A stretch of DNA of 49,765 nucleotides, from sequence record OL539444.1; one strand, given 5' to 3'. A program made the position numbers and the translations under genes. The notes below the pieces were generated by a model. That model saw only the letters and a program-made list of their open reading frames with translations. It ran no database searches and had not been told where the DNA came from. Positions 20,070 through 33,879 of the stretch are shown here, piece after piece; positions within the stretch are counted from its first letter, which is position 1; each line of letters begins with the position of its first letter. This DNA is from Escherichia phage_vB_EcoD_Punny.

Positions 20070-20082
20070 AAGGAGGTAAATC

Positions 20083-20117
20083 AATGCCCTGGCTTAACGG
20101 TCGGGGCATTTTGTTTT
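20083..20117 (+). terminator. terminator-like hairpin after J gene
   Basis: AATGCCC/GGGCATT stem with a long loop, then T-rich run. Confidence 0.4.
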
Positions 20118-20170
20118 CTTTTGTTCTACGGTGTTCACAACTTAATCCGGCGTAAAATAATAAACGTTTG

Positions 20171-20245
20171 CACAACAAAAAGAACAAATAAAATATCTAT
20201 ATAATACATACACTTAAAGAATAATTATTATTATATATCTATATT
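20171..20245. repeat. conserved AT-rich intergenic element, copy A
   Basis: AAAATATCTATATAATACAT and ATAATTATTATTATATATCTATATT are identical to 40685-40704 and 40716-40740; followed by a GT-rich TGATTGATGG tract. Confidence 0.7.
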
Positions 20246-20472
20246 TGTATTCTTATTGTTTCTATTGTTCTCTATGGTTTGTGGTGGTTGTGTGTTTTGT
20301 ATTGATTGATGGTTATATATCACATGGTATGTATTTATATATGGTATGCAGCGTAAATGCGTGAACAATGGAACGCAAAAACAACAATTAGTAAAATCAT
20401 AAACTTACGATGTGATTTTGTTTAAACGCTAGTTGCAAACGTATGCAAGACAAAAAGAACGCTTAAATGGTA

Positions 20473-20500
20473 TTGACTACATGAAACATTCACATATAAT
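20473..20500 (+). promoter_or_regulatory. sigma70-like promoter for recombination module
   Basis: TTGACT, 16-bp spacer, TATAAT; about 28 nt upstream of ATG 20529. Confidence 0.6.
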
Positions 20501-21584: not shown

Positions 21585-21627
21585 ATAGCACTTTTTGCTA
21601 AAACAGCCATTCGATGCGTGGTATACT
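21585..21627 (+). promoter_or_regulatory. dyad-motif promoter unit P1
   Basis: ATAGCACTTTTTGCTAAAAC, 17-nt gap, TGgTATACT in the loop of GATGCGTG/CACGCATC; upstream stop abuts the motif. Confidence 0.55.
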
Positions 21628-27274: not shown

Positions 27275-28162
27275 ATGATTCCTAACATTGAAAAACAGAT
27301 TGAAGAACTTGGAGCGGAAAAGATAAAGGCAATACAAAAACGCTTCACAGTTGGTGAAATTGTGCCTTACGAATATCAATGCGTTGCATACGCTGAAATC
27401 GCAAAGCGCTTGAGTAAGTATGTTGATCCGTTTTTCGTAAAAGCGGCGGTATCGGCTGGTAAAACAATCATCTTTGCTATGGTTGCGGCTCAGTGCCGTA
27501 AAATGGGGTTGAAAGCGTTATTTCTGGCGCGTCAATCTGAAATTGTGGATCAGGATTCAAAAGAGATTAGCGCCTTTGGTGTTCCGAATTCCGTTTATTG
27601 CGCTGGCCTGAATACCAAAAGCGCTTATTTCCCGATTGTTGTCGGATCGGAAGGCACTGTAATTGGTGGATTGAATAAAGCGTTGGGTGATTACGTCCCA
27701 CAAGTTTTAGGTATAGACGAATGTCATCAAGTCAACTGGAATGATATTGTTGAAGCCGAGGAAAACGGCGAAAGCATAGAGCAAATGATGACACCGAAAG
27801 GTGAACCAGTTGAAGGGAATCCGTTGCTGATTGGTTCAGGCCGCGCACAATACACCATTATCATTGCAGAAATGCGCCGCCGTTGCCTTGAGACTTACGG
27901 TCATCAGTTGCGCATATTTGGAATGACAGGATCGGAATATCGCGGAATTGAGCCGATACTTGTCGAAGATAAAAGAATTCCTGGGTTTTGGCGTGAGCAG
28001 ATCACAAACATTGATACTGATTACCTGGTAAAATTTGGTTCAGTTGTTCCCACTTATTTTGGCAATGTTGGTGATTTGGGTTACGACTTATCAGAATTTA
28101 CGCCAGTGAATGAATTTGGCGTTGCTGATTATGACCAGAAGCAATATAAAGGCCATGAGTGA
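27275..28162 (+). CDS. helicase ATPase domain protein (SF2-like, Walker A and DECH)
   Basis: AAVSAGKT Walker A and GIDECHQ motif II. Confidence 0.6.
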   Translation: MIPNIEKQIEELGAEKIKAIQKRFTVGEIVPYEYQCVAYAEIAKRLSKYVDPFFVKAAVSAGKTIIFAMVAAQCRKMGLKALFLARQSEIVDQDSKEISAFGVPNSVYCAGLNTKSAYFPIVVGSEGTVIGGLNKALGDYVPQVLGIDECHQVNWNDIVEAEENGESIEQMMTPKGEPVEGNPLLIGSGRAQYTIIIAEMRRRCLETYGHQLRIFGMTGSEYRGIEPILVEDKRIPGFWREQITNIDTDYLVKFGSVVPTYFGNVGDLGYDLSEFTPVNEFGVADYDQKQYKGHE

Positions 28163-29249
28163 CAAGATTCACCAATCAGGAACCATGACGCAGAAAATAA
28201 TGCAGATGGTTCACGAGGTGATGAAAAACCGCTTGTGCGCTCTTGTTACTTGCGCTGACGAAAGGCACTGCAAAGAGGCGGCGGCGGCGCTTCCGCCTGG
28301 CACGAAATATCACATTATCACCGGAAAAACTGGAGAGAAACAGCGGCGCTTATGGCTTGAGGATGCATATGAAGGGCGCGTTAAATACATCTTCCAGGTT
28401 CAGGCGCTAACAACTGGCGTGAACGTTCCTCCGTGGGATACTTCTGTTATTTTGCGCAAGATCGGAAGCCTGACGCTATTAACTCAGCTTTTGGGGCGCG
28501 GTATGCGTCAATTAAAAACTTACCATAAAGAAGTATTGGGAATGCACAAAACAGATCATCTTGTTTTGGACTTTTCCGGCACGATGTTTGAAATGGGTAA
28601 TTTGTATTTCGATCCAATGCTTGAGCAAGCGCAATTCCAGTTGCGTAAATCGCAGGATAAAGATCCGAAATTTTGCCCGATTTGCGGCACAGAAAATTCA
28701 TTCTATGCTCGCCGTTGCATTAATGAAGATGAAAATGGAAATCGTTGTGAGCACTTTTGGACGTTTCAAACGTGTGAGGATCAGATTGATGACCACACAA
28801 AGAAAGTTATTGTAAAAGGTTGCGGCGCAAAAAATGACGTTGCAGCGCGTGTATGCCGTTGCTGTAATGTTCAGTTACGCGATCCAAATGATAATTTATC
28901 CGGCAAGATGTACCGCAAAAATGATTGGTGCGACGTGTTAGATTTTAATGTGACGCTGACAAAAAACCAGGCTGGCGTAATATTCTGCTACACGTTGCGC
29001 GATAGTGGCGGCGTAGAATTCAGGGCATACGAAAAATATTTCCCTGAATCAGAACACAAGATATGCAAAACGCTTTGGACAAAGGCTGTTAGAACACACG
29101 TTATAGATCGCCAGGCCGCAAATTATATGATCACTTGCCGCAACGCAATTAAGATCATGAGTTATGCTGGACAAATATTGCCACCAAAGCGCGTTACGCA
29201 TCGCAAGAACACAAAGAAAGAAGATTTAATAGCACAGAAGGAATTTTAA
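28155..29249 (+). CDS. helicase C-terminal domain protein with zinc ribbons
   Basis: QLLGRGMRQ motif VI-like, then CPICG...RRC and CRCCN Cys clusters. ATG overlaps upstream stop in ATGAGTGA. Confidence 0.5.
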   Translation: MSDKIHQSGTMTQKIMQMVHEVMKNRLCALVTCADERHCKEAAAALPPGTKYHIITGKTGEKQRRLWLEDAYEGRVKYIFQVQALTTGVNVPPWDTSVILRKIGSLTLLTQLLGRGMRQLKTYHKEVLGMHKTDHLVLDFSGTMFEMGNLYFDPMLEQAQFQLRKSQDKDPKFCPICGTENSFYARRCINEDENGNRCEHFWTFQTCEDQIDDHTKKVIVKGCGAKNDVAARVCRCCNVQLRDPNDNLSGKMYRKNDWCDVLDFNVTLTKNQAGVIFCYTLRDSGGVEFRAYEKYFPESEHKICKTLWTKAVRTHVIDRQAANYMITCRNAIKIMSYAGQILPPKRVTHRKNTKKEDLIAQKEF

Positions 29250-29250
29250 T

Positions 29251-29658
29251 ATGGTTACTGATAAAGGCGATTATCTGGAGTATTACGACAAGTCAGATCC
29301 AGACGATAGGAAGGAGGAAGCGCACCAGGTTGATTCTTATTCATGGTTAACATATGAGTTTCCAATGTGGCTTGTTTGGCACACTAAAAACGAAGGGAAG
29401 AAAACAATAGGCACAGCAGTAAAGGATCAGCAAGCAGGTGTAAAAAAGGGAGTAAGCGACATTCTAATCCTGACTGGTTTTATTGGCTGCAAATATGCAT
29501 TCATTGCAATTGAGCTTAAACGAGCCAACAAGAAAGGAACGAAAGTAAGCCAGGAACAAAGGGAATTCTTGCGCCGCGTTAGGGAATGCGGAGGATTTGC
29601 CGCCGTATGCTATGGAGTAGAGCAAGTAAAATTGGCTATCGCAGACGCTACAAAATAG
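29251..29658 (+). CDS. VRR-NUC domain nuclease (putative)
   Basis: DILIL...IAIELK...EQ arrangement resembles the VRR-NUC D/E-K core; stop codon is the TAG of the next dyad motif. Confidence 0.5.
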   Translation: MVTDKGDYLEYYDKSDPDDRKEEAHQVDSYSWLTYEFPMWLVWHTKNEGKKTIGTAVKDQQAGVKKGVSDILILTGFIGCKYAFIAIELKRANKKGTKVSQEQREFLRRVRECGGFAAVCYGVEQVKLAIADATK

Positions 29659-29698
29659 CACTTTTTGTTAAAACAGGCGCAACGGAATGCGCCATAAT
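29655..29698 (+). promoter_or_regulatory. dyad-motif promoter unit P3
   Basis: ATAGCACTTTTTGTTAAAAC, 18-nt gap containing GGCGCA/TGCGCC hairpin, CATAAT. Confidence 0.55.
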
Positions 29699-29729
29699 GC
29701 ACCCATCAGAACGAAACGGAGAATTAACC

Positions 29730-30008
29730 ATGAAAAAGATGTTATCAGTAGTTGCTTTATCACTTGCTCTTGTCGGTTGCATGGATAAACCCAAAACATA
29801 TATTTGCGGAAATGAAGCGTTTGAGGTTACAAGCGAATATATGAAAGTTGTGCAAGGCAAAAGCACAGGCGTTGTAATGGATAATATCAGCAAAAATCAA
29901 TATAAGTTGTTTACGCCAATTGGAACGGCTTTCTACACAGTTAATGAAAACACAATTGATATTAAAGTTGGCGTTTATCAGAACACTCTAACTTGCGAGG
30001 TAAAATAA
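29730..30008 (+). CDS. lipoprotein (possible Cor/Llp-like superinfection exclusion protein)
   Basis: Signal peptide MKKMLSVVALSLALVG-C with lipobox; about 92 aa. Track ORF from 29586 rejected because it spans the promoter unit. Confidence 0.55.
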   Translation: MKKMLSVVALSLALVGCMDKPKTYICGNEAFEVTSEYMKVVQGKSTGVVMDNISKNQYKLFTPIGTAFYTVNENTIDIKVGVYQNTLTCEVK

Positions 30009-30009
30009 A

Positions 30010-30747
30010 ATGGCTAAAGACATTCAGGACAAAACCACAATTGACACTTTCGCACAGGAAATGGATTTTCATGAGCTACAACACGGCAGATATTCAGATA
30101 TTGCGTTGCGTTCAGGTGGTCATTATCAGCCAGTTAGAGAAAATACTTTCCTTAAAGTTAGCGGCAACCGATACGCCGGAAGTAAAACGCCTGACGTAGT
30201 GCGCGATTTGTGGGAAACGCCAGATGAAATTGTTGAATATCTTGCTGAACGTTACGGGAAATATGATCTTGATGCAGCAGCAAGCGAAAACAACAAAAAA
30301 TGCGATAAGTTTTACAGCAAAGAGACAAACTGCTTAAAGCGTTGGTGGGGTAGCAATAAGCATGTTTGGTTAAATCCACCATACAGCAATCCAGATCCAT
30401 TTATCAAAAAAGCAATTGAGCAGATGGAGCACGGAAACCAGATTGATATTTTACTTCCGGCTGATAATTCAACTGCATGGTTTAGCGATGCGCAAAAGAA
30501 TGCAGCGGAAATAATCTGGATCACTGGCGAAACATGGGAGGATGACGGCAAGGAATATTCCCGCACTGGTCGATTAGCGTTTATTTCTGGCCTGACAGGT
30601 GAACCAGTACAAGGCAACAATAAAGGCAGTGTTATTTTTATCATGCGTCAACTTAAAGAAGGTGAGCAACAGCAAACACATTATGTGAAGATTAGCGATA
30701 TTTGCCCTTCTGTAAAAAATAAACGAGCCAAAGCGCGGAGTATTTAA
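30010..30747 (+). CDS. DNA N6-adenine methyltransferase (Dam-like)
   Basis: WLNPPYS matches the (D/N)PPY catalytic motif of amino-methyltransferases; 245 aa. Confidence 0.65.
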   Translation: MAKDIQDKTTIDTFAQEMDFHELQHGRYSDIALRSGGHYQPVRENTFLKVSGNRYAGSKTPDVVRDLWETPDEIVEYLAERYGKYDLDAAASENNKKCDKFYSKETNCLKRWWGSNKHVWLNPPYSNPDPFIKKAIEQMEHGNQIDILLPADNSTAWFSDAQKNAAEIIWITGETWEDDGKEYSRTGRLAFISGLTGEPVQGNNKGSVIFIMRQLKEGEQQQTHYVKISDICPSVKNKRAKARSI

Positions 30748-30749
30748 TA

Positions 30750-31007
30750 ATGGAAAATATGACAGTTTATTTAATTGAATTTGGAGAGTGGTTGCTTTAT
30801 CGCGGCCTTGTGTGTGAAATGATCACAAAAGAGGGTCATCTAGAAAAGATCGATTGTGATTTATGGGAATTTACCGAATCTCTTGATATGAGTTTTGACG
30901 AAATAAAGGAATTACCGATTGAAGAATGGCCGATTAAAGTAAAAGCTGATCTTGATGAATTCGTTAAAGACTGGGAAATGAGAAACGGAATGATGAGAGC
31001 AGAATAG
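30750..31007 (+). CDS. hypothetical protein
   Basis: 85 aa acidic ORF; stop is the TAG inside the next dyad motif. Confidence 0.45.
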   Translation: MENMTVYLIEFGEWLLYRGLVCEMITKEGHLEKIDCDLWEFTESLDMSFDEIKELPIEEWPIKVKADLDEFVKDWEMRNGMMRAE

Positions 31008-33002: not shown

Positions 33003-33493
33003 TGACAATCAAGAAAGGTATAGCCGCCACCGTCACAGGGGCGGCTTTAATGTTGGCATCGCCTTTGATTGAAGAAATTGAGGGCGTAAAGTATAAGCCT
33101 TACAAGGATATTGCTGGAATCTGGACGGTATGCCACGGCATCACCGGAAAGGACGTGATTCTTGGAAAGGAATATACCAGGCGAGAATGTGACGCGCTAT
33201 TAGCAAAGCATATGAAAGTAGCGGCTGACGCTGTTGATAAGGCGGTTAAGGTTGAAATTCCTTTATCAATGCGAGCGGCTCTATACTCATTTACTTTCAA
33301 TGCTGGTACTGGTGCGTTTCGTAAGTCAACCATGCTGAAAAAGATCAACAATGGTGATTTATGGGGCGGTTGTGGTGAGCTATGGAACTGGACATATTAC
33401 CGGAACCCTAAAACTGGTAAAAAGGAAAAATCAAGAGGATTGAAGAACCGCCGCGCCGTCGAATATAAATATTGCGTAAGGGATCTTAAATGA
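33002..33493 (+). CDS. endolysin (lysozyme-like, possible SAR type)
   Basis: EEIEG...KPYKD...GIWTVCHG resembles the phage lysozyme catalytic region; the Gly/Ala-rich hydrophobic N-terminus could be a signal-arrest-release segment. Confidence 0.65.
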
Positions 33494-33879
33494 AAAAGAA
33501 ATTAATGGCTGTTTTGATGTGCGTTATGCTTTCCGGTTGTTCTGCTTCGAGCTTGTTACCTGGCCTGATTGGTAGCAAGCCCGATATAACAGCACAGGCA
33601 GGATCTGAAAATGTGAAACAAACTGTTGGTGTAACTGCAAAGCATGATACATCAAGCAAGCAGGAAACCACATTTAAAGAATCGGCTGTTGGAAAGGTTG
33701 ACACGTCGAATAAAAAACAGGTTAGCACTTCAAGCATTAAGGCAGATAACATCACAGCGGAAAGAATAGAGATCCGAAATAATGATGGTCTTAATGTTCC
33801 GGCAATCGCAATGGGTATATTGATGTTTATTGCTGGTATGCTGGCAGGGTGGGCACTTAAACGTAACAAGGCGGCATAA
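33490..33879 (+). CDS. unimolecular spanin (lipoprotein with C-terminal transmembrane domain)
   Basis: Lipobox LSGC after the signal peptide plus C-terminal [22 protein letters not shown]; single gene after the endolysin, as in T1-type lysis cassettes. Confidence 0.6.

Follow-up and report, generated by a model that had tools for sequence, protein, structure and literature searches.

Escherichia phage vB_EcoD_Punny (record OL539444.1), of which a stretch of 49,765 nucleotides (nt; hereafter the window) was analysed in this study, encodes on the plus strand at 29730-30008 a prolipoprotein of 92 amino acids (aa) belonging to the TLS gp60 family (PHROG 7420), which is under purifying selection, probably resides in the outer membrane and is predicted to fold into an eight-stranded beta-barrel. 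We tentatively read this protein as a binder directed at the cell envelope that would make the infected cell less open to secondary attack, exclusion-like in its effect, and neither as a homologue of the exclusion lipoproteins Cor, Llp and Rtp45 nor as the cognate blocker for the TolC-binding tail tip of the phage itself. The preliminary description of this DNA had already reported a 92-aa lipoprotein with lipobox LVGC at 29730-30008, and these coordinates proved exact, in agreement with both the signal peptide and its conservation.

Start codon and lipoprotein signal peptide

The gene comprises the following features:

29730..30008, plus strand: prolipoprotein coding sequence (TLS gp60 family, PHROG 7420), stop included; 92 codons, ATG at 29730, TAA at 30006-30008
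29718..29721, plus strand: Shine-Dalgarno (SD) sequence GGAG, 8 nt 5' of the ATG
29730..29780, plus strand: type II (lipoprotein) signal peptide, residues 1-17, with lipobox LVGC, as read from the sequence
29781..30005, plus strand: mature domain, residues 18-92; predicted eight-stranded up-and-down beta-barrel with invariant Cys26 and Cys89

The prolipoprotein starts with MKKMLSVVALSLALVGC, i.e., two lysines, a 12-residue hydrophobic core and the lipobox L14-V15-G16-C17, and this layout (MKK-MLSVVALSLA-LVGC) combines the positive n-region, the hydrophobic core and the [LVI][ASTVI][GAS]C pattern of a lipoprotein signal peptide. Cys17 (codon 29778-29780) is the predicted lipidation site, and all of 28 close and 15 diverse homologues keep G16-C17; five family members additionally gave weak matches to Pfam LPAM_1. 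The +2 residue is Met in the window protein and M, S, G, N or A in the homologues, with Asp occurring only in P0040 and P0044. Judged by the +2 rule (Met, no Asp) and by lipoprotein biology in general, the mature protein is probably located in the outer membrane.

GenBank starts the gene at window position 29697, which yields a 103-aa version whose ATG lies within a -10-like hexamer and has no SD sequence, and the TLS record annotates gp60 as an open reading frame (ORF) of 140 aa; DanielBernoulli is annotated with the short start. Considering that MKK is the N-terminus of all 28 close and all 15 diverse homologues, and that the upstream ATG lacks an SD sequence and is part of the hexamer, the short 92-aa start is correct, and the 103-aa and 140-aa versions begin too far upstream and conceal the signal peptide. 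A purine-rich GGAG or GGAA is likewise found 7-9 nt 5' of the homologues in KP36, PH1062 and the metagenomic contig L004. Scanning the six frames of the whole window for lipoboxes revealed three loci, namely the ORF at 29730-30008, the u-spanin at 33490-33879 and an antisense ORF within the tape-measure gene, the latter demonstrating that a lipobox pattern alone could arise by chance.

Conservation and annotation of the family

The window protein matched the PHROG 7420 profile over its entire length (E 2e-53, residues 1-92 against profile positions 1-92), as did 15 out of 15 diverse members the same profile, and it is 98.9% identical to TLS gp60. Full-length, stop-free homologues were identified by tblastn in 232 phage records, 169 of which are from Klebsiella phages, with identities of 61-100% except for a few distant matches near 34%. 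Besides the common MKK start and G16-C17, all 28 aligned homologues keep C26 and C89, and across the 15 diverse homologues the invariant positions are G16, C17, Y24, C26, G27, Y58 and C89. The ratio of nonsynonymous to synonymous substitution rates (dN/dS) was 0.25 against DanielBernoulli and 0.19 against KP36, the synonymous rate (dS) in the latter comparison exceeding 1; the gene is under purifying selection.

Furthermore, a word-indexed search of 5.8 billion proteins returned 34 clusters (90% identity), many of them on contigs of approximately 50 kb, the size of these phage genomes. An exhaustive hidden Markov model (HMM) search of 1.84 billion representatives returned 11 clusters (50% identity) in all, ten of which are lipoproteins of 88-115 aa, whereas the eleventh, a 3231-aa LapA-repeat RTX adhesin with 13 weak repeat matches, was judged spurious. 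P0037 used as query against viral contigs found nothing.

Database records list members of the family as 'hypothetical protein', with lengths of 140 aa for TLS and 103 aa for ZerotoHero, and one ESCO41 homologue is labelled 'Lipoprotein'. Because the over-extended starts hide the signal peptide, the lipoprotein nature of the family is mostly unrecorded, and the corrected start codon now allows the TLS gp60 and KP36 gp58 homologues to be identified as probable outer-membrane lipoproteins. Homologues in OY978799.1, OL539465.1, OL539462.1 and OM687893.1 bear the labels 'Cor superinfection exclusion protein' or '(putative) adhesin'; both kinds of label are unsupported and rest on signal-peptide or fold-level noise, and those naming an adhesin may go back to fold matches of the LapA-repeat or ACP type. 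A literature search returned no experimental data on the TLS gp60 family.

Predicted structure

AlphaFold2 modelled residues 21-92 with a predicted local distance difference test (pLDDT) score of ~96 as an eight-stranded beta-barrel of short antiparallel strands (22-26, 29-33, 37-42, 49-54, 57-62, 65-71, 75-80 and 83-88), which is closed from the N- to the C-terminus by the invariant pair Cys26-Cys89, presumably oxidised to a disulfide. In the model strand 1 begins four residues past the lipid anchor, and so short a tether would hold the barrel against the inner leaflet of the outer membrane, on its periplasmic face; there is no C-terminal transmembrane helix in the model. Foldseek found nothing significant in the PDB, where the best match was PhiA (probability 0.99, TM score 0.50, E 0.11), and in the viral model library it retrieved TLS gp60 and the ESCO41 'lipoprotein' only, neither Cor nor Llp.

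Comparison with Cor, Llp and Rtp45

The possible likeness to receptor-blocking lipoproteins of the Cor/Llp type that the preliminary description had raised was checked at the level of sequence and fold. The Cor profile (PHROG 1119) matched the window protein with an E-value of 2.5e-4, and matches were seen in 15 out of 15 diverse members, but the alignment spans no more than residues 1-44, and once the signal peptide was removed the mature sequences gave no match even at E<=10. Similarly, full-length hhalign against the Cor alignment reported a probability of 96%, yet residues 1-33 alone were aligned. Restricted to mature domains, hhalign probabilities were 0.2-0.4% for Cor and 1.5% for Llp, whose sequence was verified against 8a60_B and 7qjf_A; the profile match is one of signal peptides only. 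A Cor-versus-Llp control was equally weak (1.8%), and as this control lies at noise level, sequence comparison alone has little power for remote homology.

Fold comparison is informative in this respect. T1-type Cor is modelled with five strands, and Llp has, according to nuclear magnetic resonance (NMR), four strands in two sheets, a short helix and a C11-C58 disulfide (bioRxiv 10.64898/2026.03.26.714494); these folds of four to five strands are unlike the modelled eight-stranded barrel. Rtp45 (PDB 9RPS chain D) showed no homology, the family profile finding no PDB chain at E<=10. Homology to Cor, Llp and Rtp45 is unsupported, as is a receptor-specific blocking role.

Genomic slot and distribution

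Two genes flank the lipoprotein gene:

29251..29658, plus strand: VRR-NUC endonuclease gene, upstream neighbour (Pfam VRR_NUC, E 1.3e-8)
30010..30747, plus strand: dam, N6-adenine methyltransferase gene (Pfam Dam, E 2.3e-63), with its ATG 1 nt past the lipoprotein stop

The gene lies within the replication block, where the preliminary description had also placed it, 3.5 kb upstream of the holin-endolysin-spanin cassette, and its place among replication genes suggests early or middle expression. The slot is always VRR-NUC - lipoprotein - dam, in the window as in TLS and DanielBernoulli (Tlsvirus), KP36 (Webervirus), PH1062 (Nouzillyvirus) and the metagenomic contig L004. VRR-NUC is the upstream neighbour in L004-L006, L014, L016 and L017, of which L005 and L006 are short and have the downstream gene cut, and the order helicase - VRR_NUC - lipoprotein - Dam is complete wherever the contig reaches far enough. 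The gene does not fit an o- or u-spanin, since it lies outside the lysis cassette, its modelled product has no C-terminal transmembrane helix and a separate u-spanin is present (33490-33879).

By contrast, the slot is empty in T1, DELF2 and ADB-2 (Tunavirus) and in mar001J1 (Warwickvirus), and a Dam at least 60% identical is present in ~700 phage records versus 232 for the lipoprotein. The lipoprotein gene is an accessory gene of one Drexlerviridae lineage, comprising Tlsvirus, Webervirus, Nouzillyvirus and unclassified relatives. In Changchunvirus PHB17 (L009, 1385-1489) a 34-aa hydrophobic transmembrane peptide (MKYIFNMAASVVLGAAVTAFFLWVISLAGNFNGF) takes the place of the lipoprotein after the dam repeat unit and ahead of dam, which suggests that this slot gathers small envelope-targeted proteins, its occupant varying from lineage to lineage.

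Two observations in the same genomes are recorded here in their own right. Around window position 28146 an extra A relative to MW021748 (GCAATATAAAGG versus GCAAT-TAAAGG) splits a 657-aa ATP-dependent helicase into the overlapping ORFs 27275-28162 and 28110-29249, which may be an error of sequencing or assembly or else a real frameshift of this isolate. The early region of T1 (L015) contains ST72 (2099-2272; 57 aa, phrog_8628) with a good lipobox (…LVVSGC), a second uncharacterised small Drexlerviridae lipoprotein besides Cor and the spanin.

Upstream repeat unit

The region between the VRR-NUC and lipoprotein genes contains:

29655..29673, plus strand: direct repeat copy ATAGCACTTTTTGTTAAAA (T-type of ATAGCACnnnTTGnTAAAA), overlapping the VRR-NUC TAG stop at 29656-29658
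29676..29693, plus strand: perfect 6-bp dyad with a 6-nt loop, GGCGCAacggaaTGCGCC (GGCGCA-N6-TGCGCC), between the repeat and the -10-like hexamer
29693..29698, plus strand: -10-like hexamer CATAAT, 22 nt 3' of TTGTTA, a non-canonical spacing

The repeat ATAGCACnnnTTGnTAAAA, a 19/21-nt element of Drexlerviridae, occurs in 21 copies in the window against 0.2 expected, for example at 21585, 27197, 29655, 31004, 34176 (minus strand), 36340 (minus strand), 41994 and 47695. It is the same element as the 21-nt direct repeat of TLS, whose function as stoperator, enhancer or UP-like element was left open by its authors (PMC11447400). In intergenic units the repeat is followed by a dyad and a -10-like hexamer, then in many cases by a conserved leader (…caacgaaacg…), and finally by an SD sequence; the dyad sequence varies between units and its symmetry is usually kept. 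In many TTT-type units the dyad precedes the -10-like hexamer, and in GAA-type units, as in some of the TTT type, its two arms enclose the hexamer.

The spacer from TTGnTA to the -10-like hexamer measures 22 nt in the unit at 29655 and 21-22 nt in four other units counted, and owing to this non-canonical spacing a consensus sigma-70 scan of 29200-30300 detected no promoter. As an RNA hairpin the dyad at 29676-29693 is not more stable than shuffled sequence (z -0.85), the Rfam scan of the whole window gave no match, and GenBank lists the corresponding dyad of T1, at its dam junction, as a rho-independent terminator. The repeat units may be promoters, terminators or processing sites.

In T1, DELF2, ADB-2 and mar001J1, all devoid of the lipoprotein gene, the same repeat unit, overlapping the VRR-NUC stop, directly precedes dam, which rules out a private moron-type promoter. 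The unit is thus ancestral to dam, and the lipoprotein gene is the first cistron of the dam unit and not a moron with an imported promoter; with no further repeat unit before 31004 and a gap of 1 nt, dam follows as the next cistron of the same unit. The dyad-motif unit of its own (P3) that had been assigned to the gene does exist, but it is neither private to the gene nor a canonical sigma-70 promoter.

Phage identity and the gpJ locus

Region 29000-31000 of the window is 100% identical to Citrobacter phage vB_CfrD_ZerotoHero (MW021748; Drexlerviridae, Tempevirinae, Tlsvirus) and ~94% identical to TLS. Compared over its whole length with ZerotoHero, relative to which it is circularly permuted by 76 nt, the window shows 99.97% identity in the first half and 99.3% in the second (24816-49765; 143 mismatches, 27 gap openings). 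TLS-type phages use TolC and lipopolysaccharide (LPS) as receptors (PMC11447400, PMC8594841), so that the outer-membrane receptor expected for this phage group in the preliminary description is, for the TLS type, a channel.

TolC-targeting Drexlerviridae lack the locus of receptor-binding protein (RBP) and exclusion lipoprotein after gpJ and have a C-terminal gpJ extension instead (PMC8594841; bioRxiv 10.64898/2026.04.02.716166), and no superinfection-exclusion factor is known for them (PMC8594841, PMC9586334). In the window, the 420 bp after gpJ (20070-20488, up to the exonuclease VIII gene) contain no credible ORF and no lipoprotein ORF, which makes an exclusion gene elsewhere attractive. 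The u-spanin and the TLS gp60-type protein are the only lipoproteins in TLS-type and KP36 genomes, from which the RBP/exclusion cassette found after gpJ in other Drexlerviridae is missing; in the window the TLS gp60-type gene lies 9.7 kb from the gpJ end, not beside receptor-binding genes.

In the place of 20070-20488, T1 has gp32-gp31-cor and PH1062 an LptD-type RBP and an Rtp45-type lipoprotein; the T1 exonuclease gene is moreover preceded by a non-coding stretch of ~530 bp, and hence 20070-20488 may be regulatory. The PH1062 cassette (L017, 47940-49146, plus strand) is unannotated and encodes an 80-aa Rtp45-type lipoprotein (9rps_D, E 1e-34) and an LptD-type RBP of ~320 aa (9rpt_C, E 6e-67). 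It is convergent with gpJ, GenBank lists several small ORFs there, mostly on the minus strand, and from the two homologues the use of LptD is predicted for PH1062. Since this phage also has a TLS gp60 family member at the dam slot, the idea of a Cor substitute that is mutually exclusive with the RBP/exclusion cassette was ruled out.

Discussion

In the reading that we prefer, and hold with limited confidence, the target of the lipoprotein would be the periplasmic rim of an outer-membrane component that enterobacterial hosts share; bound there, the protein would modify the envelope of the infected cell, which might then suffer less further attack, either by entry of secondary phages or by loss of progeny on debris. 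The strict synteny across lineages, in a slot variable for small envelope proteins, is consistent with this proposal, as are the fold with its short tether and, in TLS-type and KP36 genomes, the lack of an RBP/exclusion cassette and of any lipoprotein other than this one and the u-spanin. In the literature searched, the enterobacterial siphophage outer-membrane lipoproteins of characterised function are exclusion factors or spanins, and Llp-FhuA (PMC9586334) and Rtp45-LptDE (PMC12685063) are precedents for exclusion from the periplasmic face.

Several observations weigh against an exclusion-like role. T1-type and Warwickvirus phages manage without the gene, and PH1062 carries it in addition to its Rtp45-type exclusion lipoprotein. 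No sign of an arms race is apparent, as the divergence of the lipoprotein tracks that of core genes (66% identity between window and KP36, compared with 64% for Dam), and the dN/dS of ~0.2 likewise shows none. Pfam, NCBIfam and PADLOC scans returned lipid-attachment or signal-peptide matches only and no homologue of known function, to which the empty PDB search with the family profile can be added. Lastly, the fold is a generic small barrel that is also found in lysozyme inhibitors, avidins and lipocalins.

The same generic fold leaves room for another role in the envelope or in host takeover, which is possible, if doubtful: the protein could, in the manner of calycins, bind a lipid or small hydrophobic ligand, or could stabilise or remodel the outer membrane during infection. 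Beyond the calycin-, avidin- or lipocalin-like barrel, this would suit a gene that is inherited vertically, is under purifying selection, diverges as fast as core genes and shares its transcription unit with replication genes, not receptor-binding genes. On the other hand, no ligand-binding family was matched by sequence, a barrel of 75 residues offers little room for a cavity, and no phage precedent was found in the literature searched.

PhiA being the best, albeit non-significant, PDB match, and MliC sharing with the family its lipoprotein nature, a Y-x-C-[DG] first strand and a C-terminal Cys, we also considered a tethered MliC/PliC-like inhibitor of a peptidoglycan hydrolase acting in the periplasm. 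Its target may be the tail lysin of superinfecting phages, a bacteriocin, lysozyme from the surroundings of the host or the phage's own signal-arrest-release (SAR) endolysin before lysis time, and the 'adhesin' labels, if they stem from ACP-type matches, would point in the same direction. We regard this as unlikely, because PF09864 matches none of the 15 members even at E<=10, hhalign against the MliC/PliC profile gave 0.7% (0.55% in the Cor-versus-MliC negative control), and the motifs SxSGAxY and YxxxTKG seen in MliC/PliC alignments are absent from the family alignment. Moreover, the four-residue tether compares with an MliC linker of ~17 residues, and T1, whose endolysin is 61% identical (TLS paper, PMC11447400), does without the lipoprotein gene.

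Very unlikely in our view is a cognate blocker that binds the periplasmic side of TolC, shuts out TLS-type phages and replaces the missing Cor/Llp/Rtp45-type gene. The lipoprotein is about four times commoner than the TLS-type distal domain (C-terminus) of gpJ (232 versus 52 records), the last 58 residues of KP36 gpJ are unrelated to those of the window (17% identity) though the lipoproteins are 66% identical, and a 66% identical copy is present in GH-K3, whose receptor is OmpC (Cai et al. 2018, as cited in PMC6546894). In PH1062 the copy coexists with the LptD-type RBP and Rtp45 homologue, and neither sequence nor fold relates the protein to Cor or Llp. What speaks for such a blocker is the absence of an RBP/exclusion locus and of a known exclusion factor in TolC-targeting Drexlerviridae, the presence of the gene in all TolC phages examined (TLS, DanielBernoulli, U136B; the LL5 region has 92.7% DNA identity), the outer-membrane lipoprotein predicted to sit close to the membrane, and an N-to-C cysteine pair as in Llp and Cor. 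Considering that TolC-, OmpC- and LptD-type phages all carry the family, its distribution follows phage lineage and not receptor type. The receptor blocker envisaged in the preliminary description thus finds no support, given the different fold, the distance from receptor-binding genes, the three receptor systems and the coexistence with an Rtp45-type protein in PH1062.

Finally, a chance ORF or dead remnant between VRR-NUC and dam, for which one could cite the chance occurrence of lipobox-like N-termini (as in the antisense tape-measure ORF) and the empty slot of T1-like phages, is effectively refuted by 232 intact homologues, invariant cysteines and lipobox, a dN/dS of ~0.2 at dS >1 against KP36, a pLDDT of ~96, and the upstream repeat unit with conserved SD sequence: the gene is real.

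As it stands, the practical value of these findings is modest, and the gene is an ordinary accessory gene. Distinctly unlikely, but of wider consequence, is that the protein represents a new structural class of exclusion protein, in which an eight-stranded barrel at the inner leaflet would jam either a non-TonB-dependent outer-membrane channel, which would be TolC for TLS-type phages, with orthologues redirected to other targets in Klebsiella phages, or some shared entry step that follows adsorption, or else the first phage-encoded membrane-tethered MliC-like inhibitor, which would disarm incoming lysins. If true, the jamming barrel would be the 'missing' exclusion protein of phages with a receptor-binding domain built into gpJ, and action on TolC or on a common entry step would provide a new fold for exclusion and a handle on TolC function. 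TolC phages (TLS, U136B) are under study as tools that exploit a trade-off between phage resistance and antibiotic efflux, and how lipoproteins could block non-TonB-dependent receptors is a question raised by the T5 and LptDE structural papers.

Comparison with known systems

Cor (T1, phi80, N15, HK022) and Llp (T5), which jam FhuA, are like TLS gp60 small phage lipoproteins without Asp at +2, and they share with it an N-to-C cysteine pair (C26/C89 in the TLS gp60 family). Early expression is reported for Cor and Llp, whereas for TLS gp60 it is suggested by position only. Cor and Llp are encoded beside receptor-binding genes (downstream of gpJ or pb5), TLS gp60 in the replication block; the mature domains show no sequence similarity and no Foldseek match among viral models or in the PDB, and the distribution of TLS gp60 is independent of receptor type. 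Rtp45 (phage Rtp; PDB 9RPS, LptDE-binding) is unrelated to TLS gp60 in sequence, but it is likewise a small Drexlerviridae outer-membrane lipoprotein, and it works from the periplasmic face on a non-TonB-dependent receptor. MliC, PliC, PhiA and ACP (PF09864 and relatives) have the eight-stranded beta-barrel in common with the TLS gp60 model, and in sequence the likeness between MliC/PliC and TLS gp60 is confined to the first strand, where both follow the pattern Y-x-C-[DG]-x3-hydrophobic-x-V.

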